NCBI RefSeq assembly: GCF_003018235.1
Contig: NZ_CP027437.1
Source: Escherichia coli
GTDB taxonomy: Bacteria; Pseudomonadota; Gammaproteobacteria; Enterobacterales; Enterobacteriaceae
Length of the DNA: 64,000 nt
Direction: 5' to 3' (one strand)
The notes below the pieces were generated by a model. It searched no databases, was not told where the DNA came from, and saw only the letters and a list, made by a program, of their open reading frames with translations. Position numbers and translations under genes: made by a program. This document shows positions 18,099 through 63,578 of this stretch, piece after piece. The number at the start of each line of letters is the position of its first letter. Position 1 is the stretch's first letter.

Positions 18099-20524
18099 TT
18101 ATATTTTTTCGATCTCGACCAGATTAGTGTGCTGCGGGTTTCCCTTCGCCAGTGGTGAAGGGCGCAGAGTGGTTAGCGTATTCACACAGCCGCCATGGTC
18201 GATTTTATCGCCAGACATATTGGCCTCGTGCCAGGCTCCCTGGCCCATAGCGCTAACCCCAGGGAGAATGCGTGGTGTCACTTTGGCTGGTAGCCGAACT
18301 TCGCCACGATGGTTATACACCCGCACCATATCGCCGTTGGCAATCCCACGTTTCTGTGCGTCTATAGGGTTGATCCACACCTCCTGACGGCAGGCAGCCT
18401 TCAGGACATCAATGTTGCCGTAGGTCGAGTGAGTACGGGATTTGTAATGGAAACCGAACAGTTGCAGTGGAAAGGTACTACGTTCAGGGGAGTCCCAGCC
18501 TTCAAAGGTTGAGGCATAAACCGGCAGTGGGCTTATCACTTCATCTTTTTCCAGTTCCCAGGTACGGGCAATTTCCGCCAGCTTGCTGGAATAAATTTCA
18601 ATCTTACCGGAAGGCGTTTTAAGTGGATTTGCCTCGGGGTCGTCACGAAATGCTTTGTAGGCGACAAAATGACCATTGGGATCTTTACGCTTATAGATAC
18701 CCATTTTTTTCAGTTCGTCGTAAGACGGTAACGCCGGATCTTTGGCAAGCATTTTGGCGTACAGATGTTGTAACCATTGTTCCTGCGTGCGACCTTCTGT
18801 GAACTTTTGATAGACGTCAGGTCCAAGACGTTTCGCGACCTCACTCAGGATCCAGTAAATCGGTTTGCGTTCGAATTTTTCGCTGGTGACTGGCTGAAGG
18901 AAAATGAGATATCCCATGTTACCGGCGTAGTCGTTAGGAATAATATCTTCCTGCTCAACGGTCATCAGGTCTGGCAGCAGAATGTCGGCATATTTTGCCG
19001 ATGAGGTCATAAAGTTTTCGATGACCACAATCATTTCGCATTTCGATTCGTCCTGCAGAATTTCATGCGTTTTGTTGATGTCAGAATGCTGATTAACGAG
19101 GGTATTTCCCGCATAGTTCCAGATGAACTTAATGGGCACATCCAGTTTATCTTTGCCCCGGACACCGTCGCGGATTGCCGTCATTTGCGGGCCATGATCG
19201 ATAGCATCTGTCCAGCTGAAGCAGGAGATTGACGTTTTGACCGGATTATCCAGCACCGGTAGGCGTTCTATGGTAATGGTATAGGTCGATTCACGCGCGC
19301 CACTATTCCCGCCGCTGATGCCGACATTGCCCGTCAGAATAGGCAACATCGCAATAGCACGTGCAGTCAGCTCGCCGTTTGCCTGGCGTTGCGGTCCCCA
19401 GCCCTGGCAGATATAAGCGGGTTTTGCTGTGCCAATTTCACGCGCCAGTTTGATGATACGGTCCACCGGGATACCGGTAATTTGCGAAGCCCACTGCGGC
19501 GTTTTCGCTGTTTTATCGTCACCTTCACCAAGAATATAGGCTTTATAGTGACCATTTTTTGGTGCATCTGCGGGTAAGGTTTTTTCGTCATAGCCGACGC
19601 AGTATTTATCGAGAAAAGGTTGATCAACGAGATTTTCGTTAATCAATACCCAGGCAATACCCGCAACCAGCGCGGCATCGGTGCCCGGGCGAATAGGTTG
19701 CCATTCGTCTTCACGACCAGCAGCTGTATCGGTATATCGCGGATCGATAACAATCATTTTGCGTTCGATTTCTCGCGCGCTTTTTCAAGAAGATAAGTGA
19801 TGCCACCGCCGCTCATGCGGGTTTCTGCCGGGTTGTTACCAAACATCACGACCAGCTTGCTGTTTTCAATATCCGTGGTGCTGTTGCCATCATTACTGCC
19901 GTAGGTGTAGGGCATGGCACAGGAAATTTGCGCGGTGCTGTAGGAGCCATACTGGTTGAGTGAACCGCCGTAGCAGTTCATCAGGCGTTTGACCGCCGAG
20001 GCGGATGGCGAAGAGCGGGTCATATTGCCGCCAACGATCCCTGAAGAGTACTGAATATATACAGCCTCATTGCCATATTGTTCGACGGTTTTTTTCAGGC
20101 TACTGGCGATAGTATCCAGGGCTTCATCCCAGCTAATCCGTTCGAATTTGCCTTCGCCGCGTTTGCCCACGCGTTTCATTGGGTAATTCAAGCGATCGGG
20201 ATGATTAATACGCCGACGGATGGAGCGACCGCGCAAACAGGCACGTACTTGATGATTGCCATACTCGTCGTTGCCGGTGTTGTCAGTTTCCACCCAGGTC
20301 ACTTCATTATCTTTAACATGCAGACGAAGTGCACAGCGGCTACCACAGTTGACGGAACAGGCACCACAGAGCACTTTCTCGCTGGCCTGTTGTACCGCTG
20401 CCGCTGCACTGCGCAGGGTGAACGGTAAAGAAAAACCGCCTGCAGCCAGCGCCAGAGAACCTATCGCGGTAGATTTAACGAGTGTTCTGCGGCTGATGCC
20501 CACCATTTGTTCATTTTTGGACAT
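18099..20524 (-). pseudogene. ynfE: ynfE (DmsA-type catalytic subunit) interrupted by a 1-bp frameshift in a homopolymer run
   Basis: Two adjacent ORFs in different frames (19754..20524, 256 aa, twin-arginine N-terminus MSKNEQMVGISRRTLVK; 18099..19757, 552 aa, begins MIVIDPRY) together align collinearly with intact YnfF; junction reads gca aaa tga ttg on the coding strand, where the paralogue has an in-frame ...NAR-MIVIDPRY. Confidence 0.75.
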
Positions 20525-24677: not shown

Positions 24678-25697
24678 ATGAAAAGCATATTAATTGAAAA
24701 ACCGAATCAACTGGCGATTGTCGAACGTGAAATACCCACCCCGTCAGCGGGTGAAGTACGAGTAAAAGTAAAACTTGCCGGAATTTGTGGTTCAGATAGC
24801 CATATTTATCGTGGGCATAATCCTTTTGCGAAATATCCGCGCGTCATTGGTCATGAATTCTTTGGCGTCATTGATGCAGTGGGTGAAGGCGTGGAAAGCG
24901 CCAGAGTCGGTGAACGTGTTGCAGTCGATCCGGTGGTCAGCTGTGGGCATTGCTATCCGTGCTCTATAGGTAAACCGAACGTTTGTACGACACTGGCTGT
25001 ATTAGGTGTGCACGCTGACGGTGGTTTCAGTGAATATGCCGTGGTGCCGGCAAAAAATGCGTGGAAAATTCCTGAAGCAGTGGCCGATCAATATGCGGTG
25101 ATGATCGAACCTTTTACCATTGCGGCTAACGTTACCGGTCATGGTCAACCGACTGAAAATGATACCGTTCTGGTTTACGGTGCCGGTCCAATCGGCCTGA
25201 CGATCGTTCAGGTATTAAAAGGCGTCTATAACGTTAAGAATGTGATTGTTGCCGATCGCATTGATGAACGACTGGAAAAAGCGAAAGAGAGCGGGGCAGA
25301 CTGGGCGATTAATAACAGCCAGACACCGCTTGGCGAGATTTTCGCTGAAAAAGGCATAAAGCCGACATTAATTATCGATGCGGCTTGTCATCCTTCAATC
25401 CTGAAAGAAGCCGTAACGCTGGCTTCTCCAGCGGCACGTATTGTATTGATGGGCTTCTCCAGTGAACCGTCTGAAGTGATTCAGCAAGGAATTACCGGAA
25501 AAAAACTCTCTATTTTCTCTTCACGCTTAAATGCAAATAAATTTCCGGTCGTTATCGACTGGTTAAGTAAAGGGTTAATTAAACCAGAAAAATTAATTAC
25601 CCATACGTTTGATTTCCAGCATGTTGCTGATGCCATTAGTTTATTTGAACAGGATCAAAAACATTGCTGCAAAGTCTTACTCACTTTTTCTGAATAA
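24678..25697 (+). CDS. rspB: Zinc-dependent alcohol/sugar dehydrogenase RspB
   Basis: 339 aa from MKSILIEKPNQLAIVEREIPTPSAGEVRVKVKLAGICGSDSHIYRG; MDR zinc-ligand motifs; RBS AAGGAG. Confidence 0.9.
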   Translation: MKSILIEKPNQLAIVEREIPTPSAGEVRVKVKLAGICGSDSHIYRGHNPFAKYPRVIGHEFFGVIDAVGEGVESARVGERVAVDPVVSCGHCYPCSIGKPNVCTTLAVLGVHADGGFSEYAVVPAKNAWKIPEAVADQYAVMIEPFTIAANVTGHGQPTENDTVLVYGAGPIGLTIVQVLKGVYNVKNVIVADRIDERLEKAKESGADWAINNSQTPLGEIFAEKGIKPTLIIDAACHPSILKEAVTLASPAARIVLMGFSSEPSEVIQQGITGKKLSIFSSRLNANKFPVVIDWLSKGLIKPEKLITHTFDFQHVADAISLFEQDQKHCCKVLLTFSE

Positions 25698-25754
25698 TAC
25701 CAATAACGGCGAGTAAGTAGTACGCATCTTACCTCTTTTTTAGAGATAACCATT

Positions 25755-25883
25755 ATGACAATAGAAAAACACGAAAGAAGCACTAAGGATTTGGTGAAAG
25801 CAGCAGTATCGGGATGGCTGGGCACTGCGCTTGAATTTATGGATTTCAAGAGTCATACGTGTCAACTATTTGATAAATATTAA
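25755..25883 (+). pseudogene. ydfJ: 5' fragment of MFS transporter gene ydfJ truncated by prophage insertion
   Basis: ATG 25755 opens MTIEKHERSTKDLVKAAVSGWLGTALEFMDFKSHTCQLFDKY*, a typical MFS N-terminus ending 1 nt before the integrase stop codon; Qin is known to split ydfJ in K-12. Confidence 0.5.
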
Positions 25884-25884
25884 A

Positions 25885-27180
25885 TTAATTTTTCATTGCT
25901 TCGTTATGGGGCATGGTTGGGGCAAACTCGCTTAACTGTGTATTTAACAAAGCTACCTGTGCATTATTGTTTTCAGACATCCATTTTCCGTATACCTGAA
26001 ATACCATTTGCGCATCTGCATGGCCCATCTGGTTTGCTATAAATGCCGGGTTAGCACCAGCTGTCAGCGACCAGCAGGCATAAGTATGTCTCGACTGATA
26101 TGATTTTCGATGGCGGAGTCCGGCACGTTTTATCGCTGCGTCCCACATCTGCCTTATTGAGTCAACGGTAAAATGGTCACCATAATTTTTTACTCTCGCT
26201 GACACTTCAGGTTGAAAAACAAAGGTGCATTTTTGTTTTTCTGTTCTGCCATACTCTCTGAGGTGAACATCAATGATATGCTCTTTGCTCAGTCTCGTTA
26301 ATGTCATCTGACTCCGGAGAGCGTCGATTGCTGGCTTAATAAGATGAATGACCCGATTGGTTCCCGCCTGTGTTTTTGGTACCGTGAAACGGTCTTTTGC
26401 TAAATTTCTCCTGATCATCATTGTTCCATTTTTCAGATCTATGTCCTCCCATCCAAGTGCACACAGCTCACCAGGGCGAACGCCAGTATAAACAGAAACA
26501 CACCATAAATTTTTTGCTTGCTGATTTCTGCACGCATCGATAAGACGGATAAATTCCTCCCGCGAAAGAGGATCCGGAATGGTTCTTGATTCCTTTAATG
26601 GCGAGATCCCCTTAAACGGATTATCTGGCAGGTAACCGTTATCAACACCAAACTGGAACACGGCGTTAAGATTTGTCATGTAATTATTTACAGTTACAGC
26701 CGATCTCCCTGGTTGTGTAACAATATAGTTACTTTTGGGGATCTGGTATCCAGTCAGTAGCTCTTTACGAACCTCCAGTAATTTTTCTTTATTAATCGAT
26801 GAGGCAAGATTTTTTTCACCGATTATGCTCAGGATATTTTTGATGACGGCACGGTATGTGTTGAGTGATGTTTTGGCGACTTCAGTTTCTTTCAGTGCCA
26901 GAAATTTTTCAGCCAGTTCTTTTATGGTTAAATCTTGTCGGGCCTCACCAAATTTTTCCAGATTGCGTGAGGAGGGAAACTGTTTTGCATAGTCGAAAAC
27001 ACCAGTTTTTATTGCGTAACAAACAGAGGAGCGTAGTTCACCTGCAACGCGCCTGTTTTTTGCTGTGTCAGGAACCCCCAGATTTTCCCTGACTCTTACG
27101 CCTTTATAAACAAACCAGATACGTAATTTCCATCCATGGTTTTCCACGCCTGTCGGATATTTCATTTCAACTTCTCTCAT
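25885..27180 (-). CDS. intQ: Prophage tyrosine integrase (lambda Int family), apparently intact
   Basis: 431-aa ORF (alternative start MKYPTGVENHGWKL at 27165); C-terminal catalytic region with R...HxxR...Y residues (RHRKSYQSRHTYACW... MGHADAQMVFQVYGKW); adjacent to attachment junction. Confidence 0.85.
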   Translation of the reverse strand: MREVEMKYPTGVENHGWKLRIWFVYKGVRVRENLGVPDTAKNRRVAGELRSSVCYAIKTGVFDYAKQFPSSRNLEKFGEARQDLTIKELAEKFLALKETEVAKTSLNTYRAVIKNILSIIGEKNLASSINKEKLLEVRKELLTGYQIPKSNYIVTQPGRSAVTVNNYMTNLNAVFQFGVDNGYLPDNPFKGISPLKESRTIPDPLSREEFIRLIDACRNQQAKNLWCVSVYTGVRPGELCALGWEDIDLKNGTMMIRRNLAKDRFTVPKTQAGTNRVIHLIKPAIDALRSQMTLTRLSKEHIIDVHLREYGRTEKQKCTFVFQPEVSARVKNYGDHFTVDSIRQMWDAAIKRAGLRHRKSYQSRHTYACWSLTAGANPAFIANQMGHADAQMVFQVYGKWMSENNNAQVALLNTQLSEFAPTMPHNEAMKN

Positions 27181-27199
27181 TAGTTAGTGTGGCTTTTAG

Positions 27200-27451
27200 T
27201 CAAGTAAGATGACGTCTTGGTCTCGCTGATGCCTGGCGCAAAATCCAGCGATCAATTTCTTCCAGGTTGTAAAAGCATGGACTGTTATCCCATGGCATAC
27301 CGTCATGAGCGACATGCTTATATTCCCTTCCTTCCATAAACGATTTTTCCCGGGCCTTTTTTAACGTACCTTTTTTTATTCCTTTCAGCGCAATTAACTG
27401 CTCTTCGGATACCCATTTGCCGGGAGAGACAATCATGATTACTTCGCTCAT
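27200..27451 (-). CDS. Putative excisionase / small DNA-binding protein
   Basis: 83-aa basic ORF immediately upstream of int on the same strand, the usual xis position; sequence itself is not diagnostic to me. Confidence 0.5.
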   Translation of the reverse strand: MSEVIMIVSPGKWVSEEQLIALKGIKKGTLKKAREKSFMEGREYKHVAHDGMPWDNSPCFYNLEEIDRWILRQASARPRRHLT

Positions 27452-27523
27452 CGATTTCTTTATCTCTTACATCAGACGAGCGCCGGTTGCAGAATACCAG
27501 TCACAACCGGCGACAGTTGAACA

Positions 27524-29995
27524 TTAAGAATCAGCCTGACTCGGGATCAGTTTTTGCCAGATAACTGAAACGTATTTTGCCTGGTAACGGGCGTCATCAA
27601 GTGCATTATGGCGCTCACCTTCGAATGGAATAGCCGTTCTGGCATCGAAGTCTATGGCTTTCCCCAGCTCAACGATTGTGCGTACATCGCGATCGTTGTA
27701 GTAACGCCACGGGCAGGGGATCCCCTGCCGTTCGTATGAACGGCGCAAAATCGTGTTGTCGAAGTTGGCTCCATTTCCCCAAACCTGAACAAAAAATTCA
27801 CCGGAGTTTTCGTCGATAAATTCCCGCAATTGTAACAGTGCATCATCTAACGGGATTTCATCGGTCATAATGGCAGATTGCGCTTCGCGTGATTGCTTAA
27901 GCCACCATTTAATGGTGTCCCGATCAATGACTCCGCCAGCAGTTTCCAGATCGATAGTCTTACTAAATTCCGGTCCCATATCTCCGGTTTGCGGATCGAA
28001 AAATATTGCACCTATTGAGATGATCGGGGCATCAGGATTTTTTCCCATGGTTTCAAGGTCGATCATTAGATGGTCACACGTCCTGCTGGTGGATGTGATT
28101 TCGTGATGACCGTTCACCTTAATTGAGTGATCTGCCGTCTCGCCAGTTTCATTATCGCTATTGTGATGCTGATTGCCGCCAGTGTTCTCCTTGTGTGGAT
28201 GTTCAGCGCCTTCCATTTCCTCCGGATCATCTTCCTGAACTTCAACCTGATACTCTTCATCGAATGTTTCTTGGTATGTTGCGTCGCCCATCACCGCGCC
28301 ACAATCAGGGCAGTTGCCGCCGCCGGTCTGACCGCAGGCGGTGCAGACTTTTTCCACTTCCTGTTGCGCCACTGGTTCAGGCTGTTTCGTTTCTGGCTCG
28401 TTTTGTAACGCATTTGTGCTGTTTTGTTCCGCTTTTTGGTAGTTCCGTTCCGATTCATGCTGGTTCTGGTTCACAGAATCGCGGGTCTGGATCCCCTTAA
28501 CCCATTTCGGATCATTCGGGTCACTAATCCCTTCAACAAATTCACCACGTGATGCAGCAAGCAACTTATCGGCGTCAGGCTGGCTGATATTGGCTGCCTG
28601 CATAATTTTGTTTACTTCGTCAGCGGTAACTTTTATCGGCTCTGGTTGTTCTGAATCTTCAGCGGTATCTACATTTTGCGGTAAGCCCGTGTATGTGCCA
28701 TTTTTTCGGGCAAAATATTCTTCTTTTGTGATTTCAGTGGCGCCAGCAGCCAGTGCCTTATCCAGACCAGAAAGTTTGTTTGCGCGACCGTATTTTTCTC
28801 CGTCCTTATCTGCGAAGAGGAAATAGAACGGCCCCTCACGCTCTACAGATGGTTCAGCTTCCGGCGCGGTTTCATTTTTTGGGATATCAGATACCTCAGT
28901 TTCCACTGCATCAGTTTGTGTTTCTGATGACTGGAGAACATCAACAGTGCCCAGGTCTGTTTCTTCATTCTCAAACACGCCCTTTGTCGTCAGGTATTCG
29001 CAGATATATTTGTTCAGTGCTATGGGATCTTTGTGAATGTCGATCGGACGCTCACGGACAAGGCCAAAAATAGTCTGGCGGTCGTAGCGAAGGGCATCAG
29101 GCTGTTTGCGCATTGATGCCGAGATACGCTTCCAGTCTTCGCGGTCGTTGTCGATAACTTCTTTTTTTGCCCAGCGATGGATGCTGCCGTCAATGTTTCC
29201 GGCATCCACATCACCAGGCCAGAGAGCGTAGGCCAGTTCGTCATCCAGTGTTTTCCATGTCTGCTTGTATTCGCGATGAATGGCAGCAATGACCGGGCTG
29301 ATTTTTCCTGTTGAATTTTCAGTGTACTGTTGATTGGCTCTGGCGCGGGCGAGATCAACAACAGACGTGTATTTTCCGGTTTCCTTGCGTTCACCTTCGC
29401 GACGTTTTTTCCAGATGCGCATCTCTGCCTGAATTTCGGGCCATTTAGCACCAGGAATACATTTATGCTTAACCCACCCAATGGCGTGCAACTTAAGCTC
29501 CGGATACATGGCGTTAACTTCTGGCATTTTCATCAACGCTTCAACGATATGTCCGTCGAATGTTGCCATGTCTTCCTGCAACAATTCCTGTGCGCTAATA
29601 ACCATATCAACGGTGATGTTTTCACATGTGTCGAACTTAACCATGACAGCGTTCTGTACTTCAGGGGCCAGCTTGTCAAAAGTGACGTTCATCGGATCGG
29701 ATTCAGTCTCAACCGGGACAAAAGAAGCAGACTCCTCATCCCAGCGGTTTTCCTGCATATATTCAGCATCCCATGAATCGAGGGCAGGGCGGGGTATGCC
29801 AGGTTTATCCTCGCAGACAATAAATTTATAAGCGCAGTCCTGAGCAGCCGGATAATGTTCCAGGAACTGCCAGTGAAATTTTGCTCGAGCACGGCGTTCG
29901 TCGCCAGCTTCAATGGCTGTGGCTACAGCCACAGCGCCTTCTTCCCTTGTTGCCAGTTCGTCAGGAATAGCGGCGCAAATAAAGACTTTACTCAT
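27524..29995 (-). CDS. Large prophage protein with C-terminal DnaQ-like 3'-5' exonuclease domain (full-length YdfE-like; annotated in related prophages as exodeoxyribonuclease VIII)
   Basis: 823 aa; C-terminal ~190 aa carries exonuclease-type acidic motifs (MIDLETMG, WGNGANFD, HNALDDARYQ); central CxxC...CxxC (CTACGQTGGGNCPDCG); acidic low-complexity linker. Confidence 0.7.
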   Translation of the reverse strand: MSKVFICAAIPDELATREEGAVAVATAIEAGDERRARAKFHWQFLEHYPAAQDCAYKFIVCEDKPGIPRPALDSWDAEYMQENRWDEESASFVPVETESDPMNVTFDKLAPEVQNAVMVKFDTCENITVDMVISAQELLQEDMATFDGHIVEALMKMPEVNAMYPELKLHAIGWVKHKCIPGAKWPEIQAEMRIWKKRREGERKETGKYTSVVDLARARANQQYTENSTGKISPVIAAIHREYKQTWKTLDDELAYALWPGDVDAGNIDGSIHRWAKKEVIDNDREDWKRISASMRKQPDALRYDRQTIFGLVRERPIDIHKDPIALNKYICEYLTTKGVFENEETDLGTVDVLQSSETQTDAVETEVSDIPKNETAPEAEPSVEREGPFYFLFADKDGEKYGRANKLSGLDKALAAGATEITKEEYFARKNGTYTGLPQNVDTAEDSEQPEPIKVTADEVNKIMQAANISQPDADKLLAASRGEFVEGISDPNDPKWVKGIQTRDSVNQNQHESERNYQKAEQNSTNALQNEPETKQPEPVAQQEVEKVCTACGQTGGGNCPDCGAVMGDATYQETFDEEYQVEVQEDDPEEMEGAEHPHKENTGGNQHHNSDNETGETADHSIKVNGHHEITSTSRTCDHLMIDLETMGKNPDAPIISIGAIFFDPQTGDMGPEFSKTIDLETAGGVIDRDTIKWWLKQSREAQSAIMTDEIPLDDALLQLREFIDENSGEFFVQVWGNGANFDNTILRRSYERQGIPCPWRYYNDRDVRTIVELGKAIDFDARTAIPFEGERHNALDDARYQAKYVSVIWQKLIPSQADS

Positions 29996-30088
29996 TTTGT
30001 TTTAACCTCATGACAGATTTAAGGATGAACAAATCCCTGCTATTGCTGGCATATAAGAATGAAACCGGATATTTATTACGGAACTGTT

Positions 30089-30280
30089 TTAAAGACCTGC
30101 CGGGATTTCGATATTATCCTGGTGAATAACTTTATCGACCGGGTAACAGTTACCGGGAATTTTCTGTTCGGTTGCTGCAGTCATACACTCCTGTATTGTC
30201 CTGTGAACACTGACTGCAATATCAACTGGCTCTCCGGAAACAAGAAAAACTGTCAGAACAAGCGCAAATGCTGAATTCAT
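30089..30280 (-). CDS. ydfD: Small prophage protein YdfD
   Basis: 63 aa from MNSAFALVLTVFLVSGEPVD (signal-like N-terminus); start overlaps dicB stop by 4 nt (ATGA); size and synteny match Qin ydfD. Confidence 0.55.
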   Translation of the reverse strand: MNSAFALVLTVFLVSGEPVDIAVSVHRTIQECMTAATEQKIPGNCYPVDKVIHQDNIEIPAGL

Positions 30281-30465
30281 TGTGCACATCCTTTTGGCAT
30301 CAGACGTAAACGAGCCAGCATTGAAACAATGCATATTTTATTTAATAGCTCCCGTTCTTGTTTTCTCTTGTTAATGGCATCTTCAGTAAATACAGGGTTA
30401 CTGATAGTGACACCAATTTCAAAACAACCTTCAGACGTATTAACGTTTGGTAATAACGTTTTCAT
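30277..30465 (-). CDS. dicB: Cell-division inhibitor DicB
   Basis: 62 aa MKTLLPNVNTSEGCFEIGVTISNPVFTEDAINKRKQERELLNKICIVSMLARLRLMPKGCAQ matches my recollection of DicB; located downstream of dicF. Confidence 0.8.
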   Translation of the reverse strand: MKTLLPNVNTSEGCFEIGVTISNPVFTEDAINKRKQERELLNKICIVSMLARLRLMPKGCAQ

Positions 30466-30636
30466 TATCGCGTCCTCAACAATGAATTTTGTGATGCAGT
30501 GCCTGGTGCCTCCAGGTGACGTTAACCAGTTAACAATTAACGCCGGATACAGAGAATCCACCCATAACACTGTTTTTGGTTTTAACTGTTCCGCGTGCGC
30601 TTAGCCGCATTCACCGCATCACAAAACTCACTTTAA

Positions 30637-32872
<2,236 letters not shown>

Positions 32873-32934
32873 TTACCAGATTTAGACATCTGTTTCCGAT
32901 AGCCCGTTCTGATGCTACACTTTTTGCTATTTTC

Positions 32935-33621
32935 ATGAACCTCATAAACACATTTATGACTGTTGCTGATTTCAAACGCCCCAAATTGGAGCTCCCAAAC
33001 GGGGCAAAAAAACTATTACTGCACTCTTGCTGTGCTCCATGTTCCGGTGAAGTGATGGAGGCGCTTCAGGCCTCGGGAATCGACTACACCATCTTTTTCT
33101 ACAACCCGAACATTCATCCTCAGAAAGAGTATTTAATTCGTAAGGATGAGAATATTCGCTTTGCTAAACAACACGGCGTGCCATTTATTGATGCTGATTA
33201 CGACACAGACAACTGGTTTGAGCGAGCCAAAGGAATGGAATGGGAGCCTGAACGAGGGATCCGTTGTACCATGTGTTTTGACATGCGTTTTGAGCGGACT
33301 GCGCTGTATGCCGCTGAAAATGGTTTCAGTGTGATCAGTAGCTCACTGGGCATTTCACGCTGGAAAAATATGCAGCAGGTTAACGACTGTGGACGGCGAG
33401 CCGTCGCGTATTATCCGGGCATGGTGTACTGGGATTATAACTGGCGAAAGCAGGGCGGCTCTTCCCGCATGATTGAAATCAGCAAGCGCGAACAATTCTA
33501 TCAGCAGGAATATTGTGGCTGCGTGTATTCACTGCGCGATACCAATCTACACCGCAAATCTCAGGGACGCCCTCTAATCAAAATTGGTCAACTCCACTAC
33601 GGTAAAGAAGGGCAGGAATGA
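32935..33621 (+). CDS. DUF208 / QueH-like protein (putative epoxyqueuosine reductase)
   Basis: Motif [16 protein letters not shown] near N-terminus plus conserved Cys at CTMC and YCGCVYS; start uncertain (ATG 32935 or 32956, no clear SD; track ORF from 32842). Confidence 0.6.
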
Positions 33622-33702
33622 TTTTATATTATGCCAACAACGGAGCGTAGCAGTGTTTCTATATATAGTACGCCTACCTTAATTTTCAAATAATCATGAT
33701 TA

Positions 33703-33739
33703 ATGAGCAGGTCATCAGTGCAAGCAATGACCTGCTCAT
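33703..33739. repeat. Perfect 13-bp inverted repeat (hairpin or operator-like palindrome) downstream of queH-like gene
   Basis: atgagcaggtcat-cagtgcaagca-atgacctgctcat; followed by cttgttg, weak U-tract. Confidence 0.4.
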
Positions 33740-34236
33740 CTTGTTGAAATTAGAGGAAATCTTGAAGCCATGATATGGCTTAAAATAACGTTTGATTATT
33801 TTACCTGCTGTTTGTCCCTGGTTTAAAGTCGGTTGTCTGATTTGATTACGCGCAACTGACGCTTACGTATTGAAGTAACGAGCACGAAGACACATATTTA
33901 TCAGTGCCTGTATACGTCAAGAGCAGGAGATTTATGTGCTGGTTCTCAAATGCACGCTGGCTATTGTGGCTGTAATGGCAATTTATTGTCTTGTTATTGT
34001 TCTTATGGATCACCTTACTGATTGATTTCATATTGGCGAGGTAACGGTAGTTAAGTAGAATGGCTGCGGGTGCTTGAGGCTATCTGCCTCGGGCATGAAC
34101 ACCAACGGCAGATAGAGAAAAGCCCCAGTTAACATTACGCGTCCTGCAAGACGCTTAACATTAATCTGAGGCCAATTTCATGCTAGACACATGTAGGTTA
34201 GCCTCTTACGTGCCGAAAGGCAAGGAGAAGCAGGCT

Positions 34237-34392
34237 ATGAAGCAGCAAAAGGCGATGTTAATCGCCCTGATCGTCATTTGTTTAACCGTCATAGTGACGG
34301 CACTGGTAACGAGGAAAGACCTCTGCGAGGTACGAATCCGAACCGGCCAGACGGAGGTCGCTGTCTTCACAGCTTACGAACCTGAGGAGTAA
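34237..34392 (+). CDS. hokD: Hok-family type I toxin HokD (RelF)
   Basis: 51 aa MKQQKAMLIALIVICLTVIVTALVTRKDLCEVRIRTGQTEVAVFTAYEPEE; RBS AAGGAGAAG; overlapping upstream mok-like frame from 34180. Confidence 0.85.
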   Translation: MKQQKAMLIALIVICLTVIVTALVTRKDLCEVRIRTGQTEVAVFTAYEPEE

Positions 34393-34459
34393 GAGACCCG
34401 GCGAGGGAGAAATCCCTCGCCACCTCTGATGTGGCAGGCATCCTCAACGCACCCGCACT

Positions 34460-34486
34460 TAACCCGCTTCGGCGGGTTTTTGTTTT
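34460..34486 (+). terminator. Rho-independent terminator after hokD
   Basis: aacccgc-ttcg-gcgggtt followed by tttgttttt. Confidence 0.6.
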
Positions 34487-34608
34487 TATTTTCAACGCGT
34501 TTGAAGTTCTGGACGGTGCCGGAATAGAATCAAAAATACTTAAGTAGCGCGCAGGGATAAGAGGGATGGTCCCTTAAAGGGGAGAGCTAATTATCCGGAA
34601 GGATTCTG

Positions 34609-34860
34609 ATGATGAACATCGAAGAACTGCGTAAAATTTTTTGTGAAGATGGCCTCTATGCTGTGTGCGTTGAAAATGGAAATCTTGTTAGTCATTACCG
34701 CATTATGTGTTTGCGAAAGAATGGGGCTGCGTTAATTAATTTTGTGGATGGTCGAGTGACAGACGGATTTATCTTGCGCGAAGGTGAGTTTGTCACTTCA
34801 TTACAGGCACTGAAAGAGATCGGAATAAAAGCAGGCTTTTCAGCTTTTGCAGAAGAATAA
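34609..34860 (+). CDS. rem: Small prophage protein, Rem-like by position
   Basis: 83-aa ORF between hokD and ydfU, the Qin position of rem (same length); sequence not independently recognised. Confidence 0.4.
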   Translation: MMNIEELRKIFCEDGLYAVCVENGNLVSHYRIMCLRKNGAALINFVDGRVTDGFILREGEFVTSLQALKEIGIKAGFSAFAEE

Positions 34861-34926
34861 ACTCATCTACAATCTTGCGCGGGGCTGAACTCCCGCTGAG
34901 TAACACCGTGCCACCGGAGAAAACCG

Positions 34927-35205
34927 ATGGCACGCAACGTAAAATATTACAATTCTGATAATTCGCCCGTTCTTGCCTGCACGCACGAGCGGTATTCTCA
35001 CGCATTCAAGTCTGAATGGTTCCAGCACCCTCCATGCACTGAAGAGCAGGCTGAATGGATAATTCAGTGTTACCGCAGGCGCGGATACGAGGTTAAGAAA
35101 GCCCTTAGTCTCGACTACCGTCACTGGATAATCTCAGTCAGATTGCCTTACTCCGAACGCCCACCGCGTCCGTCCCGTACATTCCAGCAACGCATCTGGA
35201 GGTAA
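34927..35205 (+). CDS. Hypothetical prophage protein
   Basis: 92-aa ORF with RBS GGAGAAAA; stop 1 nt before GTG start of ydfU (translational coupling). Confidence 0.4.
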   Translation: MARNVKYYNSDNSPVLACTHERYSHAFKSEWFQHPPCTEEQAEWIIQCYRRRGYEVKKALSLDYRHWIISVRLPYSERPPRPSRTFQQRIWR

Positions 35206-35206
35206 C

Positions 35207-36256
35207 GTGCGGGTATTACTTCGACCTGTTCTGGTACCGGAACTCGGGCTGGTGGTCGTTAAGCCGGGCCGTGAATCCATGCCGGTATTCCACAATACCC
35301 GGGTACTGGTGGAGCCGGAACCGAAAAGCATGCGTAATCTGCCGTCCGGGGTCGTTCCTGCCGTTCGCCAGCCGCTGGTGGAAGACAAAACATTGCTGCC
35401 GTTTTTCAGTAACGCACGGGTAATTCGTGCTGCTGGTGGTGCTGGTGCATTGTCTGACTGGCTGTTGCGCCATATTAAATCCTGCCAGTGGCCACACGGC
35501 GATTATCATCACAGTGAAACCGTTATTCACCGTTATGGTACCGGCGCAATGGTGTTGTGCTGGCACTGCGACAACCAGCTGCGTGACCAGACATCCGAAT
35601 CACTCGAGCAACTTGCTCATCAAAACCTGTCAGCATGGATGATTGACGTCATCGGTCACGCAATAAGCGGTACGCAGGAGCGTGAATTATCTCTGGCTGA
35701 ATTATCCTGGTGGGCGGTCCGCAATCAGGTGGCGGACGCGCTACCGGAAGCGGTATTACGTCGCTCGCTGGGATTACCAGCGGAAAAAAACTGCTCGGTG
35801 TACCGCGAAAGCGACATCGTACCGGGAGAGCAGACCGCCACCAGCATATTGAAACAGCGCACAAAAAATCTTGCACCGTTGCCTCACGCCCACCAGCAAC
35901 AAAACCCATCACAGGAAAAGACGGTGGTAAGCATCACCGTTGATCCAGAGTCTCCGGAATCTTTCATGAAGCTGCCTAAACGTCACCGTTGGGTTAAGGA
36001 GAAATACACACGCTGGGTTAAGACACAGCCGTGTGCTTGCTGCGGTATGCCAGCCGACGATCCGCATCATCTGATTGGTCACGGGCAGGGCGGAATGGGA
36101 ACCAAAGCACATGATCTCTTTGTGTTGCCTTTGTGCAGAAAGCATCACGACGAGCTGCATGCGAATACCGTGGCATTTGAAGAGAAGTATGGCTCCCAGC
36201 TGGAGCTGATATTTCGTTTTATCGATCGTGCGCTGGCAATAGGCGTACTGGCGTAA
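35207..36256 (+). CDS. ydfU: DUF968 prophage protein YdfU with C-terminal HNH-like motif
   Basis: 349 aa from GTG with RBS CTGGAGG; C-terminal CACCGMPADDPHHLIGHGQ...CRKHHDELH resembles HNH/zinc-hook; size and synteny match Qin ydfU. Confidence 0.65.
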   Translation: MRVLLRPVLVPELGLVVVKPGRESMPVFHNTRVLVEPEPKSMRNLPSGVVPAVRQPLVEDKTLLPFFSNARVIRAAGGAGALSDWLLRHIKSCQWPHGDYHHSETVIHRYGTGAMVLCWHCDNQLRDQTSESLEQLAHQNLSAWMIDVIGHAISGTQERELSLAELSWWAVRNQVADALPEAVLRRSLGLPAEKNCSVYRESDIVPGEQTATSILKQRTKNLAPLPHAHQQQNPSQEKTVVSITVDPESPESFMKLPKRHRWVKEKYTRWVKTQPCACCGMPADDPHHLIGHGQGGMGTKAHDLFVLPLCRKHHDELHANTVAFEEKYGSQLELIFRFIDRALAIGVLA

Positions 36257-36269
36257 GTGGAGAACGAGC

Positions 36270-48024: not shown

Positions 48025-49532
48025 TGGCAATTCTTGATGATGTGATTGGCGTTTTTTCACCAGGATGGAAAGCGGCAAGGCTGCGTTCCCGAGCGGTGAT
48101 CCAAGCTTATGAGGCCGTAAAAACGACGCGGACACACAAAGCCCGACGGGAGAACCGAACTGCCGACCAGTTAAGCCAGTACGGGGCCGTGTCGTTACGT
48201 GAGCAGGCCCGTTACCTTGATAACAACCACGATCTGGTCATTGGTGTATCTGACAAGCTGGAAGAACGGGTGGTGGGGAAAAACGGGATTATTGTCGAGC
48301 CACATCCGGTATTACGCAATGGTGCCATTGCCCGTGACCTGGCAGCGGAGATACGTACCCGATGGAGTGAATGGTCTGTCAGTCCGGAAGTCACCGGGCA
48401 GTTTACCCGTCCGATGCTGGAACGTCTGATGCTGCGTACCTGGCTGCGCGATGGTGAGGTGTTTGCCCAGATGGTTTCCGGGCGCATAAACAGCCTGACG
48501 CCTTCTGCCGGTGTTCATTTCTGGCTGGAGGCGCTCGAGCCGGACTTTATTCCCATGACCAGTGATGAGAGCAACAGGCTGAATCAGGGCGTGTTTGTTG
48601 ATGACTGGGGGCGTCCCGAAAAATATCTGGTGTATAAAAGTCGTCCTGTATCCGGACGGCAGATGGAAACCAAAGAAGTGGATGCAGAGCGAATGCTGCA
48701 TCTTAAATTTGTTCGCCGTCTGCACCAGATGCGCGGGACGTCTTTATTGTCCGGTGTGCTGATCCGCCTCAGCGCCCTGAAAGAGTATGAAGATTCTGAG
48801 CTGACTGCAGCAAGGATCGCCGCTGCTCTGGGGATGTACATCCGGAAAGGCGACGGACAGAGCTATGAAACGGATGGTAATGACAGCAAGGAGAATGAAC
48901 GCGAGCTTACCATTCAGCCAGGCATTATTTACGACGATCTGAAACCCGGCGAAGAAATCGGAATGGTGAAGTCGGATCGTCCCAATCCTAACCTTGAAAC
49001 TTTTCGTAATGGTCAGTTGCGTGCCGTGGCGGCGGGCAGTCGTCTGAGTTTTTCCAGTACGGCACGCAACTATAACGGCACTTACAGCGCCCAGCGTCAG
49101 GAACTGGTTGAGTCTACTGATGGCTACCTGATCCTGCAGGACTGGTTTATTGGTGCCGTCACCCGCCCGATGTATCGTGCCTGGCTGAAACAGGCTGTGG
49201 CATCCGGTGTTATCAGGCTACCCCGCGATCTTGACCGTTCTTCACTGTATACCGCGGTGTATTCCGGACCAGTGATGCCGTGGATTGACCCTGTTAAGGA
49301 GGCTGAGGCCTGGAAAATCCAGATTCGTGGTGGAGCGGCGACAGAATCAGACTGGGTACGTGCTGGTGGTCGTAATCCGGATGATGTCAAACGTCGGCGC
49401 AAGGCCGAAATTGATGAAAACCGCAAGCTGGATCTGGTATTTGATACCGATCCGGCCAGTGATAAAGGAGGCAGCAGTGCCGCAACGAAACGACAGGAGC
49501 CGCAGCACACCGACGACCAGTCCGAAGAATAA
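48024..49532 (+). CDS. Portal protein (lambda gpB-like)
   Basis: 502 aa from MAILDDVIGVFSPGWKAARLRSRAVIQAYEAV; track ORF carries an upstream extension overlapping W. Confidence 0.8.
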   Translation: MAILDDVIGVFSPGWKAARLRSRAVIQAYEAVKTTRTHKARRENRTADQLSQYGAVSLREQARYLDNNHDLVIGVSDKLEERVVGKNGIIVEPHPVLRNGAIARDLAAEIRTRWSEWSVSPEVTGQFTRPMLERLMLRTWLRDGEVFAQMVSGRINSLTPSAGVHFWLEALEPDFIPMTSDESNRLNQGVFVDDWGRPEKYLVYKSRPVSGRQMETKEVDAERMLHLKFVRRLHQMRGTSLLSGVLIRLSALKEYEDSELTAARIAAALGMYIRKGDGQSYETDGNDSKENERELTIQPGIIYDDLKPGEEIGMVKSDRPNPNLETFRNGQLRAVAAGSRLSFSSTARNYNGTYSAQRQELVESTDGYLILQDWFIGAVTRPMYRAWLKQAVASGVIRLPRDLDRSSLYTAVYSGPVMPWIDPVKEAEAWKIQIRGGAATESDWVRAGGRNPDDVKRRRKAEIDENRKLDLVFDTDPASDKGGSSAATKRQEPQHTDDQSEE

Positions 49533-49545
49533 TTCCTGGTTCAGG

Positions 49546-51504
49546 ATGCAGGCTGGTCACCAGAGTGACGCGGATATTTATATTTATGACGAGATTGGTT
49601 TCTGGGGTGTTACAGCGAAGCAGTTTATCAGTGATCTGAATGCACTGGGCGATATCACCCACATTAATCTCCATATTAATTCACCGGGTGGCGATGTCTT
49701 TGAAGGCATCGCCATTTTTAATGCGCTGAAAACACATGGTGCGTCCATTACCGTTTATGTCGACGGTGTGGCGGCGTCAATGGCGTCGGTCATTGCGATG
49801 GTGGGAAACCCGGTCATTATGCCGGAAAACACTTTCATGATGATTCATAAACCATTTGGCTTTACGGGCGGTGATGCGGAGGACATGCGCACCTATGCCG
49901 ACCTGCTCGATAAAGTTGAGGCGGTTCTGTTACCCGCTTATGCACAGAAAACCGGGAAAACCACCGATGAAATTGCTGCCATGCTGGCGGATGAGACCTG
50001 GATGTCCGGTGCCGAATGTCTGGCACATGGATTTGCTGATCAGGTAACGCCAGCCGTTAAGGCAATGGCATGTATTCAGTCAAAACGTACAGAGGAATTT
50101 AAAAAGATGCCGGAATCCATTCGAAACATGATTACTCCGCCACGCAACAGTGCTCCACGCGTACAGGATGATGAACCTGCAGCCTCCCGGACGCCAGTGC
50201 AGGCAGCAGCACCCGTGGTGGATGAAAACAGTATCCGTGCGCAGGTACTGGCAGAGCAAAAAGCGCGTGTAAACGGTATTAATGATCTGTTTGCCATGTT
50301 TGGCGGGCGTTATCAGACTCTGCAGGCTCAGTGTCTTGCCGATCCTGAATGTTCGCTGGAGCAGGCCCGCGAAAAGCTGTTGAACGAGATGGGGCGCGAG
50401 TCCACGCCATCCAATAAAAATACCCCGGCTCATATTTATGCCGGTAACGGTAATTTTGTGGGGGACGGGATCCGCCAGGCGCTGATGGCGCGTGCCGGAT
50501 TTGAAAAAACCGAACGTGATAATGTCTACAACGGGATGACCCTGCGTGAATATGCCCGTATGTCACTGACTGAACGGGGTATTGGGGTTTCCAGTTATAA
50601 CCCGATGCAGATGGTCGGTGCGGCGTTCACACACAGTACGTCTGACTTCGGTAATATTCTGCTGGATGTTGCGAACAAAGCCATTCTGCAGGGCTGGGAA
50701 GATGCTCCTGAAACCTATGAACAGTGGACGCGGAAAGGTCAGTTGTCTGATTTTAAAATTGCCCATCGTGTGGGTATGGGGGGCTTCAGTGCTCTGCGTC
50801 AGGTGCGTGAAGGGGCGGAATATAAATACGTCACCACCGGAGATAAACAGGCCACTATTGCACTGGCGACCTATGGCGAGCTGTTCAGTATCACCCGTCA
50901 GGCCATTATCAATGATGATCTGAATATGCTGACCGATGTCCCGATGAAGCTGGGCCGTGCGGCGAAATCCACCATTGCCGATCTGGTTTATGCCATTCTG
51001 ACGTCTAACCCGAAAATCTCCACAGATAATGTAAGTCTGTTCGATAAAGCGAAACATGCAAACGTACTGGAGAGCGCTGCAATGGACGTGGCATCGCTGG
51101 ATAAAGCCCGCCAGTTGATGCGCGTTCAGAAAGAGGGGGAGCGTCATCTGAATATTCGTCCTGCGTTCGTACTGGTACCGACGGCGATGGAGTCTGTTGC
51201 TAACCAGGTCATTCGCTCCTCAAGTGTCAAGGGGGCTGACATTAACGCCGGTATTATTAACCCGGTGAAAGATTTTGCGACCGTTATTGCAGAGCCTCGT
51301 CTTGATGATAACAGCCAGACCACCTTCTACCTGGCTGCGTCCAAAGGCTCCGATACGATTGAAGTGGCTTATCTCAACGGTGTGGATACGCCATATATTG
51401 ATCAGATGGAGGGCTTCAGTGTGGATGGCGTGACAACGAAAGTGCGTATTGACGCCGGTGTCGCGCCAGTTGATCACCGCGGTCTGGTGAAATGTACGGC
51501 GTAA
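49546..51504 (+). CDS. Prohead protease (ClpP/S49-like) - scaffold - HK97-fold major capsid fusion protein
   Basis: 652 aa from MQAGHQSDADIYIYDEIGFWGV; N-terminal ClpP-like domain (INSPGGDVFEGIAIFNAL...ASMASVIAM), Ala/Gln-rich coiled linker, C-terminal ~350-aa capsid domain. Confidence 0.75.
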   Translation: MQAGHQSDADIYIYDEIGFWGVTAKQFISDLNALGDITHINLHINSPGGDVFEGIAIFNALKTHGASITVYVDGVAASMASVIAMVGNPVIMPENTFMMIHKPFGFTGGDAEDMRTYADLLDKVEAVLLPAYAQKTGKTTDEIAAMLADETWMSGAECLAHGFADQVTPAVKAMACIQSKRTEEFKKMPESIRNMITPPRNSAPRVQDDEPAASRTPVQAAAPVVDENSIRAQVLAEQKARVNGINDLFAMFGGRYQTLQAQCLADPECSLEQAREKLLNEMGRESTPSNKNTPAHIYAGNGNFVGDGIRQALMARAGFEKTERDNVYNGMTLREYARMSLTERGIGVSSYNPMQMVGAAFTHSTSDFGNILLDVANKAILQGWEDAPETYEQWTRKGQLSDFKIAHRVGMGGFSALRQVREGAEYKYVTTGDKQATIALATYGELFSITRQAIINDDLNMLTDVPMKLGRAAKSTIADLVYAILTSNPKISTDNVSLFDKAKHANVLESAAMDVASLDKARQLMRVQKEGERHLNIRPAFVLVPTAMESVANQVIRSSSVKGADINAGIINPVKDFATVIAEPRLDDNSQTTFYLAASKGSDTIEVAYLNGVDTPYIDQMEGFSVDGVTTKVRIDAGVAPVDHRGLVKCTA

Positions 51505-51524
51505 ACGTCGCAGACAACAACTCT

Positions 51525-51547
51525 GATGGCCCGTAAGGGCTTTTTTT
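51525..51547 (+). terminator. Possible rho-independent terminator after capsid gene
   Basis: Short hairpin ggccc-gtaa-gggc followed by ttttttt. Confidence 0.4.
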
Positions 51548-51590
51548 GTACCTGAAATCAGCCTCTGAACGGGGCTGTGCGGAGACAGTT

Positions 51591-51914
51591 ATGGCAAAGA
51601 ATTTTGTAGAAGAAGGAAAAACGGTGGCGATTGTTGCCAGTGCAGCCATCAGCAGCGGAGATCTGGTGCAGGTGGGTGATGTTTTTGCGGTGGCGCTGAC
51701 CGATATTCCACAGGGTGAAACAGGCGACGGCATGACCGAAGGTGTGTTTATCCTGCCTAAACTGAAAACGGATGACATGAAAACGGGTAAGAAGGTTTAT
51801 CTGAAGTCCGGAAAAGTTCAGCTGACTAACAGCGGCTCTGATCCGCTGGTCGGGGTTGTCTGGGCAGATGCCGGAACCAGTGCAGAAGAAGTGCCGGTAA
51901 AACTCAATGTCTGA
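51591..51914 (+). CDS. Small head protein (decoration or head-completion protein, unassigned)
   Basis: 107 aa from MAKNFVEEGKTVAIVASAAISSGDLVQVGDVFAVALTDI after RBS GGAG; position directly after capsid gene. Confidence 0.5.
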   Translation: MAKNFVEEGKTVAIVASAAISSGDLVQVGDVFAVALTDIPQGETGDGMTEGVFILPKLKTDDMKTGKKVYLKSGKVQLTNSGSDPLVGVVWADAGTSAEEVPVKLNV

Positions 51915-52182
51915 TCCCTTTTCCCGGCTGGCAGCGCGTATGGATGCGATCACGGTCAGAAAGATGGGAAAGACAGCCTCGATTAATGATGTCGATATGG
52001 CTGTGATCCCGGGCGAAACACTGGCAGAGCTGAATGCTCTGTCCGGACCTGCGGTCTCTCTGGTGGTGTTTTCTTCGGGATACCGCCCACGGCGCGGGGA
52101 TCGCGTTGTTTATGACGGACAACAATGGACGGTCACACGGCATGAACGTTTTAACGGTAAGCCAATGATCTTTATTGAGTAA
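51907..52182 (+). CDS. Head-tail connector / head completion protein (FII-like position)
   Basis: 91-aa ORF overlapping the previous gene by 8 nt, upstream of gpZ homologue. Confidence 0.5.
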   Translation: MSDPFSRLAARMDAITVRKMGKTASINDVDMAVIPGETLAELNALSGPAVSLVVFSSGYRPRRGDRVVYDGQQWTVTRHERFNGKPMIFIE

Positions 52183-52193
52183 AGAGGTGTGGG

Positions 52194-52772
52194 ATGAAGG
52201 GGCTTGAGAATGCCATCCGCAATCTGAACAGCCTTGATACCCGTATGGTGCCACAGGCCAGCGCATGGGCGATAAACCGTGTGGCACAGAAAGCGGTCTC
52301 GGTTGCCACCCGGCAGGTTGCCGGGAATACCGTTGCGGGAGATAACCAGGTGAAAGGGATCCCCCTGAAACTGGTACGTCAGCGTGTCCGGGTGTTTAAA
52401 GCCAGTCCGTCAGGAAAAATGACGGCCAGGATCCGCGTTAACCGGGGCAATCTGCCCGCCATTAAGCTGGGGACAGCCCGGGTCAGACTGGCCCGGCGTG
52501 GTGGAAAACTGCAGTACCGTGGCAGTGTGCTGAAGGTGGGTAAATATCTTTTCCGGGATGCGTTTATTCAGCAACTGGCGAATGGTCGCTGGCATGTGAT
52601 GCGGCGTATTGATGGCAAAAATCGTTACCCCATTGATGTGGTGAAAATCCCGCTGTCCGGACCGCTGACACAGGCATTTGAAGATGCCCGCGACCACATC
52701 ATTGCTGCGGAAATGCCGAAACAGCTGGGGTATGCACTGAAACAACAACTGAGGTTATGGCTGACCCGATGA
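52194..52772 (+). CDS. Minor tail protein Z (lambda gpZ-like)
   Basis: 192 aa, same length and position as lambda Z; RBS GAGGTG. Confidence 0.7.
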   Translation: MKGLENAIRNLNSLDTRMVPQASAWAINRVAQKAVSVATRQVAGNTVAGDNQVKGIPLKLVRQRVRVFKASPSGKMTARIRVNRGNLPAIKLGTARVRLARRGGKLQYRGSVLKVGKYLFRDAFIQQLANGRWHVMRRIDGKNRYPIDVVKIPLSGPLTQAFEDARDHIIAAEMPKQLGYALKQQLRLWLTR

Positions 52773-53170
52773 ACCGGCATACACAAATCCGCCAGGCCGT
52801 ACTGGCACGCCTTCGGGAACAGTGTGGAGACAGCGCCACGTTTTTTGACGGGCTTCCGGCATTTATTGATGTGCAGGAACTGCCTGCCGTGGCGGTGTGG
52901 CTGAGTGATGCTCAGTACACCGGAAAAATGACGGATGAAGATGACTGGCAGGCTGTTCTGCATATTGCCGTCTTCATCCGGGCACAGGCACCGGATTCAG
53001 AGCTGGATATGTGGATGGAGAGCACCATTTTCCCTGCCCTGAATGATATACCGGCACTTTCCGGACTCATCGACACCCTGATCCCACTCGGTTTTAACTA
53101 TCAACGTGATAATGAGATGGCCACCTGGGCGATGGCGGAAATCACGTACCAGATCACGTACACGAATTAA
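52757..53170 (+). CDS. Tail terminator protein U (lambda gpU-like)
   Basis: 137 aa, overlaps Z stop, precedes major tail gene. Confidence 0.7.
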   Translation: MADPMNRHTQIRQAVLARLREQCGDSATFFDGLPAFIDVQELPAVAVWLSDAQYTGKMTDEDDWQAVLHIAVFIRAQAPDSELDMWMESTIFPALNDIPALSGLIDTLIPLGFNYQRDNEMATWAMAEITYQITYTN

Positions 53171-53180
53171 GGAGGTGGTA

Positions 53181-53924
53181 ATGACCACACCAAATCCACT
53201 GGCAAAGACGAAAGGTGCGGGGACGACGTTCTGGATGTATACCGGCAACGGCGATGCGTTTGCGAACCCTTTGTCGGACACTGACTGGCTGCGTCTTGCG
53301 ATGGTGAAGGATCTGCAACCTGGCGAAATGACCGCTGATGCAGAAGATGACACTTATCTCGATGATGAAGATGCAGACTGGAAAACGACAACCCAGGGGC
53401 AGAAATCCGTTGGTGATACTTCGGCGACGCTGGCCTGGCGTCCGGGTGACAGCGGGCAGAAAAAACTGGTTCAGTTGTTCGACTCCGGTGAAGTCTGCGC
53501 GTTTCGTATCAAATATCCCAACGGCACTGTTGATGTTTTCCGTGCCTGGCTGAGCTCACTGGGTAAAACCATTGCCTCAAAAGACGTGATGACCCGCACT
53601 GTGAAAATCAGCGGTGTGGGGCGTCCGTATCTGGCAGAGGAAGGCACTGAAACCGTGAGCGTTACCGGGCTGACAGTATCACCGGCGTCTGCCAGTGTAA
53701 AAGTGGGAGCAACCACCACGCTGACCTTTACAGTAAAACCTGACGGAGCCAGTGACAAAGCGATCAGTGTGCATTCGTCAGATCCACAGACTGCCACGGT
53801 TACCCTGAACGGACTTGTGGCCACGGTAAAAGGCGTGAAGCAGGGCAGTGTCAGCATTGTGGGCATGACCGCTGACGGGAATTTTGTGGCTGTGACTGCG
53901 GTGACTGTCAGCGCAGCAGGTTAA
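53181..53924 (+). CDS. Major tail protein V with C-terminal Ig-like (Big_2-type) domain
   Basis: 247 aa from MTTPNPLAKTKGAGTTFWMY after RBS AAGGAGGTGG; C-terminal beta-rich repeat VSVTGLTVSPASASVKVGATTTLTFTVKPDGASDKAISVHSSDPQTATVT. Confidence 0.8.
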   Translation: MTTPNPLAKTKGAGTTFWMYTGNGDAFANPLSDTDWLRLAMVKDLQPGEMTADAEDDTYLDDEDADWKTTTQGQKSVGDTSATLAWRPGDSGQKKLVQLFDSGEVCAFRIKYPNGTVDVFRAWLSSLGKTIASKDVMTRTVKISGVGRPYLAEEGTETVSVTGLTVSPASASVKVGATTTLTFTVKPDGASDKAISVHSSDPQTATVTLNGLVATVKGVKQGSVSIVGMTADGNFVAVTAVTVSAAG

Positions 53925-53981
53925 CAGGACGATACTCATCATTTGCCCCGGTTATGCGGGGCTTTTTTGCAGGTGGAGAAC

Positions 53982-54371
53982 ATGATGTTTCTGAAACAGG
54001 ACACGTTTAATTATGAAAAACAGTCCGTGGTGCTCAGTGAGCTGTCCGGGCTGCAGAGAATTGAATATCTGACGTTTGTTCAGCAGCGAACGGCAAAGTT
54101 TGATGCCGGGGAGGGAGAACTGCCGGAGGCTGAACGACAGATTGCTTTTCTGCGGATGGGGATGGATATCAATGCCTGGCTGGTTTCCCGCTCACTGTGG
54201 AATGCGGATCAGTCTAAGGATGTAGAGACGCTTTGCGCATCCGTTATTACAACATGGTCGTATGATGCCCTGGGTGCGGGGGCGGAGATGGTTCTGTCGC
54301 TGAGCGGTATGGGGGCCATTGATAATGCCGTGGATGATGAGCATGAGGCGCTGACGCCGGAAAAGTCCTGA
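53982..54371 (+). CDS. Tail assembly chaperone G (lambda gpG-like)
   Basis: 129 aa from MMFLKQDTFNYEK after RBS GGTGGAG; followed by -1 frame T ORF. Confidence 0.75.
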   Translation: MMFLKQDTFNYEKQSVVLSELSGLQRIEYLTFVQQRTAKFDAGEGELPEAERQIAFLRMGMDINAWLVSRSLWNADQSKDVETLCASVITTWSYDALGAGAEMVLSLSGMGAIDNAVDDEHEALTPEKS

Positions 54372-54709
54372 CGCGGGAAATGCAGTTTGTCATGCGGCTT
54401 GCCCGGGAGTTCCGGCGGGCAGACTGGCGGCGGATGCTGTCGGAAATGTCGGCCACTGAGCTTGGTGAGTGGGGCGATTATTTCCGGATGCAGAGCTTCA
54501 GTGATGTGTGGATGGATGCGCAGTTTGCCTCGCTGAAGGCATTGATCGTGATAATGGTGTCCGGCAGCAGTGATGCTGCGGTGGCTGATTTCAGCCTTTT
54601 ACCGGAAGAGAACGGGATACCGGAGCGAACGGACGAAGAACTGATGCATCTTGGGGAAGGTATTTCCGGAGGTGTGCGTTATGGAGCAGATAGCCAACCT
54701 GGTCATTGA
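54359..54709 (+). CDS. Tail assembly chaperone T portion, expressed as G-T fusion by programmed -1 frameshift
   Basis: T frame is -1 relative to G and is open only from 54347 (three stop codons at 54335-54346); candidate slippery heptamer G_GAA_AAG at 54359-54365, just before G stop. Confidence 0.65.
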   Translation, partial: GKVLTREMQFVMRLAREFRRADWRRMLSEMSATELGEWGDYFRMQSFSDVWMDAQFASLKALIVIMVSGSSDAAVADFSLLPEENGIPERTDEELMHLGEGISGGVRYGADSQPGH

Positions 54710-57700: not shown

Positions 57701-57746
57701 ACAGCAGGCCCGTGATGGTGGTCGGTTAAGTGGAGCATATCGGTAA
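54681..57746 (+). CDS. Tail tape measure protein (lambda gpH-like)
   Basis: 1021 aa from MEQIANLVIDLGIDAAEF after RBS GGAGGTG; long coiled-coil Gln/Ala/Arg-rich central region, Gly-rich C-terminal part. Confidence 0.85.
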   Translation: MEQIANLVIDLGIDAAEFKNEIPRIKNLLNGAASDAERSSARMQRFMERQTQAARQTTQAASSAATAASVHAQTVEKNAQAHERMAREVEKTRQRMEALSQKMREEQAQAMALAEAQDKAAAAFYRQIDSVKQASAGLQELQRIQQQIRQARNSGGIGQQDYLALISEVTAKTRVLTQAEEEATRQKVAFIRQLKEQATRLNLSSSELLRAKAAQLGVSSAAEVYIRKMEHAGKATHSLGLKSASARQEIGVLIGELARGNLGALRGSGITLANRAGWIDTLMSPKGMMLGGVIGGIAAAVYGLGKAWYDGQKEGEEFNRQLSLTGHYAGVTAGQLWTLSRAISGNGITQHAAAGALAQVVGSGAFRGNDIGMVARAAAQMERSVGQSVSDTINQFKRLKDDPVNAAKALDNELHFLTATQLEQIRVLGEQGRSSDAARIAMSALAEETGRRTADIDNNLNALGSTLKYLSDLWSRFWDAAMNIGREDSLDEQIAALQEKVSRAKRLPWTASSSQVEYDQQRLNDLQEKKRQKDLQDAKEQAERNYQEQQKRRNAENAALNRMNETEAARHQREIARINAMQYADQAVRDAAIQRENERYEKALASGKKKTRETRNDEATRLLLQYSQQQAQVEGQIAAARQSVGIATERMTEAHKQLLALQQRISDLDGKKLTADEKSVLARKDELIQALTLLDVKQQELQKQTALNELKKKTIQLTSQLAEEERAQRQQHDLDIATVGMGDQQRQRYQVQLSLRQKYQQQLEQLRRDSEQKGTYNTDDYRKAEQALTESLNRQLNENRRYWQQLEVVQGNWKNGVLRAFQDFTVDADNTAETAEQVFSSAFSNMGNGLATFVTTGKLNFKSFTSSVLSDMAKILAQATMMKSIKGIGSVLGFDLSSLSLNANGGIYQSADLSRYSGTVVNRPTFFAFAKGAGVMGEAGPEAILPLRRGADGKLGVVADIGGSGMAMFSPQYNIEINNDGTNGQIGPAALKAVYDLGKKAAADFMQQQARDGGRLSGAYR

Positions 57747-58075: not shown

Positions 58076-58084
58076 GAGGCTCTG

Positions 58085-60077: not shown

Positions 60078-60137
60078 TGAAAAACGTTTTATGTGAAACC
60101 GCCTCCGGGCGGTTTTGTCGTTTATGGAGCGTGAGGA

Positions 60138-63533: not shown

Positions 63534-63553
63534 ATTTTATAACCCATATACGG

Positions 63554-63578
63554 GCACCAGAAATGGTGCTTTTTTTTT
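63554..63578 (+). terminator. Rho-independent terminator after J
   Basis: gcacca-gaaa-tggtgc followed by ttttttttt. Confidence 0.75.

Follow-up and report, generated by a model that had tools for sequence, protein, structure and literature searches.

Prophages that occupy ydfJ

Phage lambda has Int and Xis with attP and attB, and its target lies between gal and bio. Other lambdoid elements use a site inside ydfJ. In E. coli K-12 this site is taken by Qin, whose insertion deprives ydfJ of its promoter and first 28 codons, and Qin was found in 48% of 638 strains (PMC6379469). This cryptic prophage is reduced to 20.5 kb; IS2 interrupts its int, and head and tail genes are missing. The PPydfJ prophages of STEC are also integrated in ydfJ, often in clusters of two to four and with effector genes (Nakamura et al. 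2021, PMC8112680). From attP, attL, attR and attB, an att of 18 or 19 bp was defined for ydfJ prophages (S7 Fig legend in PMC8112680).

We analysed a 64,000-nt stretch of an E. coli genome (contig NZ_CP027437.1), hereafter the window, in which the sequence downstream of rspB passes from host into phage DNA. We read this region as the attL (B-O-P') of an mEp460/Qin-type lambdoid prophage, made by attP x attB recombination in ydfJ, with a probability of about 0.95. The junction is real but ordinary, and its site and att sequence are already published (PMC6379469, PMC8112680). That about half of all E. coli strains have an occupied ydfJ is likewise published; the gain here is correct annotation only, with the left prophage boundary now fixed to the nucleotide.

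The prophage resembles lambda in having a tyrosine integrase with an arm-binding domain, an adjoining excisionase, att beside int and a short identical core. Its core and target are different, and the target lies inside a gene, not between two genes as in lambda. The likeness to Qin goes further. Qin meets ydfJ at the same nucleotide and through the same core, and the adjoining phage arms differ by just two SNPs. The annotated Qin ends in MG1655 (1632277 and 1652745), between ynfP/rspB and ydfJ, coincide with this core and junction nucleotide. Over 1197 nt the K-12 intQ remnant and the integrase gene of the window are 99.4% identical. The earlier note's view that this is the target gene of Qin, and the insertion a site-specific one of the Qin family, therefore holds. 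In the interior, collinearity with the window extends over 54% of Qin, in segments of 93-99.4% identity, including the blocks dicB-dicF, hokD-rem-ydfU-ydfT and csp-lysis. Unlike Qin, the window prophage has an intact int and xis, as well as a complete complement of head and tail genes, with terminase, portal, capsid and tail genes present. Compared with the STEC clusters, the window shows the left part of one prophage.

The host/phage boundary and the att sites

Features of the junction region and the prophage in the window
Feature	Coordinates	Strand	Remarks
rspB	24678..25697	+	host gene upstream of the junction; ORF; related genomes have rspB annotated here
ydfJ 5' fragment, codons 1-31 (B arm and core)	25755..25847	+	identical to intact ydfJ of DETEC-C31 and ATCC 43886
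Chimeric 42-codon ORF	25755..25883	+	31 ydfJ codons and 11 phage codons; orthologue of K-12 ynfP
Extended imperfect att, TGAATTTATGGATTTCAAG	25832..25850		near the end, attB carries C instead of A; attP has one T fewer
att core, 11-bp exact, TTATGGATTTC	25837..25847		common to attL, attB, attR and attP
P' arm of the prophage	25848..26000 (extent approximate)		overlaps the int 3' end; identical to mEp460_ev081 attP right of the core
Prophage body	25848..64000		runs off the window end inside tail gene J (60138..63533)
Integrase gene, 426 aa	25885..27165	-	Pfam Arm-DNA-bind_2 and Phage_integrase; within a 431-codon ORF, 25885..27180
Two TGGGGCA copies, tentative candidate arm-type Int sites	25907..25924 (25907-25913, 25918-25924)	+	inside the int 3' coding end; weak statistics
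Excisionase gene	27200..27451	-	Pfam PF06806 (DUF1233, putative excisionase), E 1.2e-30; annotated excisionase in relatives
Rfam matches: DicF, sok, two cspA-type leaders	30640-30691, 34068-34242, 39490-39913, 42390-42775	-, +, +, +	

Upstream of rspB the genes speG, ynfB, ynfA and rspA follow the order usual in E. coli. We compared the window with the uninterrupted ydfJ of DETEC-C31 and ATCC 43886. The intact allele encodes an MHS-family MFS transporter of 455 aa with an MFS_1 match. The window is identical to these genomes from rspB to 25847 and unrelated beyond; past that point only AG at 25849-25850 is shared, which is a chance match. Intact ydfJ aligned with the short ORF over 96 nt (99%, E 2.5e-43), a match that chance does not explain, and every column was identical up to 25847. 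By this comparison the host/phage boundary is 25847/25848, 150 bp after rspB. This bears out the earlier note, which had placed the junction inside ydfJ and proposed the comparison with uninterrupted alleles: homology stops there, and in the ORF a 5' fragment of ydfJ is continued by phage DNA. The note's distance of 190 bp from rspB has to be corrected: it is the integrase gene that lies 190 bp away. Its interval of about 25840-25890 does contain the break, at the left edge, and covers the core only in part.

Of the full-length 455-aa ORF the window holds codons 1-31 only. We searched the window for the 3' part of ydfJ, for ydfI and for a second copy of the core and found none of them. No tRNA gene is present either, which rules out an integration targeted to a tRNA. 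The far end could be seen in relatives. The close relative SC487 has the same attL and, 45.7 kb on, an attR beside a ydfJ fragment without its N-terminus, followed by ydfI; the core occurs twice in this locus, once at each prophage end, and once in the window. In both SC487 and K-12 the ydfJ match at attR begins at the core, so that the ydfJ 3' fragment and the core repeat are present at the far end of both. By analogy with SC487, the attR of this genome is expected to read CACCTGTGAATTATGGATTTCCAGTTATATTCGCTCGG followed by ydfJ codons 29-455 and ydfI, about 6 kb beyond the window and gene J. It is possible that the right end is rearranged or deleted in this genome, or that the prophage is one of a tandem cluster, as the window ends in gene J, before attR. 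The attR core keeps an in-frame ATG, codon 29 of ydfJ (L004 47232; K-12 ydfJ b1543), and because of this K-12 YdfJ is annotated at 427 aa, without half of the first membrane segment.

Four sites were aligned, namely attL from the window, attB from the genomes with intact ydfJ, attR from SC487 and attP from the free phage mEp460_ev081. The alignment gave attL as B-O-P' and attR as P-O-B'. With the flanking imperfect matches, attB reads TGAATTTATGGATTTCCAG and attP reads TGAATTATGGATTTCAAG, and the att of the window is consistent with the published 18 or 19 bp (PMC8112680). The geometry is that of a classical Campbell integration over an 11-bp exact core within an imperfect 18/19-bp att. We also joined the P arm of SC487, the core and the P' arm of the window into a predicted attP of 611 bp. 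Four free phages, mEp460_ev081, PhiR42_1, Tritos and HannyBb, carry this sequence uninterrupted next to their integrase gene, at 98.7-99.7% identity.

The integrase combines an arm-binding domain (PF12167, E 1.6e-22) with a catalytic domain (PF00589, E 4e-18) and is similar to the Tn1549 Int and XerA structures. It matches the Int of mEp460_ev081 at 421 of 426 residues, and this 99% identity to a free-phage Int, together with the adjacent excisionase, supports integration through att; the five residues that differ weigh on the other side. From the geometry of the junction we infer that Int, with Xis, catalysed the integration and could reverse it. Unlike in lambda, only 37 bp separate the core from the int stop codon, so that any sites in the P' arm would overlap with the coding part of int. 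The heptamer TGGGGCA occurs three times near the core, always on one strand: at about -136, in the P arm of attP (L006 3165-3171), and at about +71 and +82. These three copies flanking the core may be arm-type Int sites, with weak statistics, as 14 of 200 shuffles reach three copies in 6.6 kb.

Origin of the junction and of the short ORF

In the proposed mechanism, the phage tyrosine integrase would recombine attP with attB inside ydfJ codons 28-31, across the identical 11 bp. The exchange parts the beginning of ydfJ (promoter, start codon and codons 1-31), which stays beside rspB, from the remainder of the gene, which should adjoin attR beyond the window. The strain is probably without a functional YdfJ transporter. 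The reading frame that begins at the ydfJ start runs into the P' arm for 11 codons and ends just short of the convergent int gene. An ORF of 42 codons ending 1 nt before the integrase stop had been reported in the earlier note and is present as described: its own stop codon occupies 25881-25883 and that of the minus-strand integrase ORF 25885-25887. It encodes MTIEKHERSTKDLVKAAVSGWLGTALEFMDFKSHTCQLFDKY, with the N-terminus MTIEKHERSTKDLVKAAVSGWLGTALEFMDF.

The short ORF by rspB thus exists because a prophage integrated into ydfJ. Its K-12 orthologue YnfP (b4534) has the same start and the same place by rspB and shares the first 34 residues, while the tails differ (42 aa in the window, 36 in K-12). 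YnfP is shorter because a SNP in the phage arm makes an earlier stop. It is among the small proteins detected by epitope tagging (PMC6001520 Table 1), which could be taken to mean that the ORF is an independent small-protein gene and not a relic of ydfJ. We consider this very unlikely. The detection means that the ydfJ start signals still work in K-12, not that the product is functional; 31 of the 42 codons are the beginning of ydfJ, and the tail is phage-arm sequence whose length changes with a SNP. The product would join 31 residues from the first membrane segment of YdfJ to a phage-encoded tail, 36 or 42 aa in total depending on the SNP in the P' arm. It is equally improbable that this chimeric stub, produced through what is left of the ydfJ start signals, does a job of its own for which the prophage has to be present.

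Of 5426 complete E. coli genomes, 2672 have the same attL, with a 601-bp probe covered to 80% or more, and other E. coli genomes carry intact ydfJ. The attL is near-identical throughout this half of all genomes, and the prophage is a mosaic, with the early region nearest HannyBb (99.5%), the late region nearest mEp460_ev081 (98.6%) and the Qin segments at 93-99.4%. Both observations would fit an old Qin insertion, made site-specifically and inherited vertically, whose interior later gave way, through homologous recombination, to sequence from incoming lambdoid phages. We hold such a history, without a recent integration, to be possible but rather unlikely. Free phages with a matching attP and a near-identical Int exist, however, so repeated fresh integration is equally possible. 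An insertion by a route other than att (illegitimate recombination or transposition), or an assembly artefact, is extremely improbable: we found no support for either, and the exact B-O-P' geometry, the same nucleotide in K-12 and in 2672 genomes, and the contiguous attP of the phages all stand against it. The preferred reading remains attP x attB recombination inside ydfJ.

Variation around the junction and in the prophage

Between 25500 and 26100 there were no hits at 100% identity among the matches listed from 5146 matching genomes, and scans of the same interval for promoter and terminator consensus sequences found nothing. The rspB codon at position 25503 is AAA (Lys) in the window and GAA (Glu) in O157 strain 493/89. 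The attL probe comparison seemed to contain a 1-nt indel (602 against 601 bases), which was dismissed, since it came from an offset in the coordinate report and one substitution in rspB. Farther upstream, ynfE (minus strand, 18099..20524) has a 1-nt deletion relative to K-12 at about 19761 (AACGCCAAAATG to AACGCAAAATG), which splits the gene into ORFs of 256 and 552 aa. The 141 bp around it had no exact counterpart in a complete E. coli genome among the matches listed (98.6%); the deletion could be a private frameshift or an error in sequencing.

The best matches to the whole window among the 5426 complete E. coli genomes had 97% coverage at 98.1% identity, or 92% at 99.5%. In the free phages mEp460_ev081, HannyBb, PhiR42_1 and Tritos attP is unbroken, whereas the window holds the integrated form, a mosaic of their modules. 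Inside the prophage, as in Qin, there are Rfam matches to the DicF sRNA, to the antitoxin RNA sok and to two thermoregulator leaders of the cspA type. At about 45194, shortly ahead of the terminase genes, the window aligns with the first position of both the mEp460 and the mEp460_ev081 genome, which is probably their cos end.
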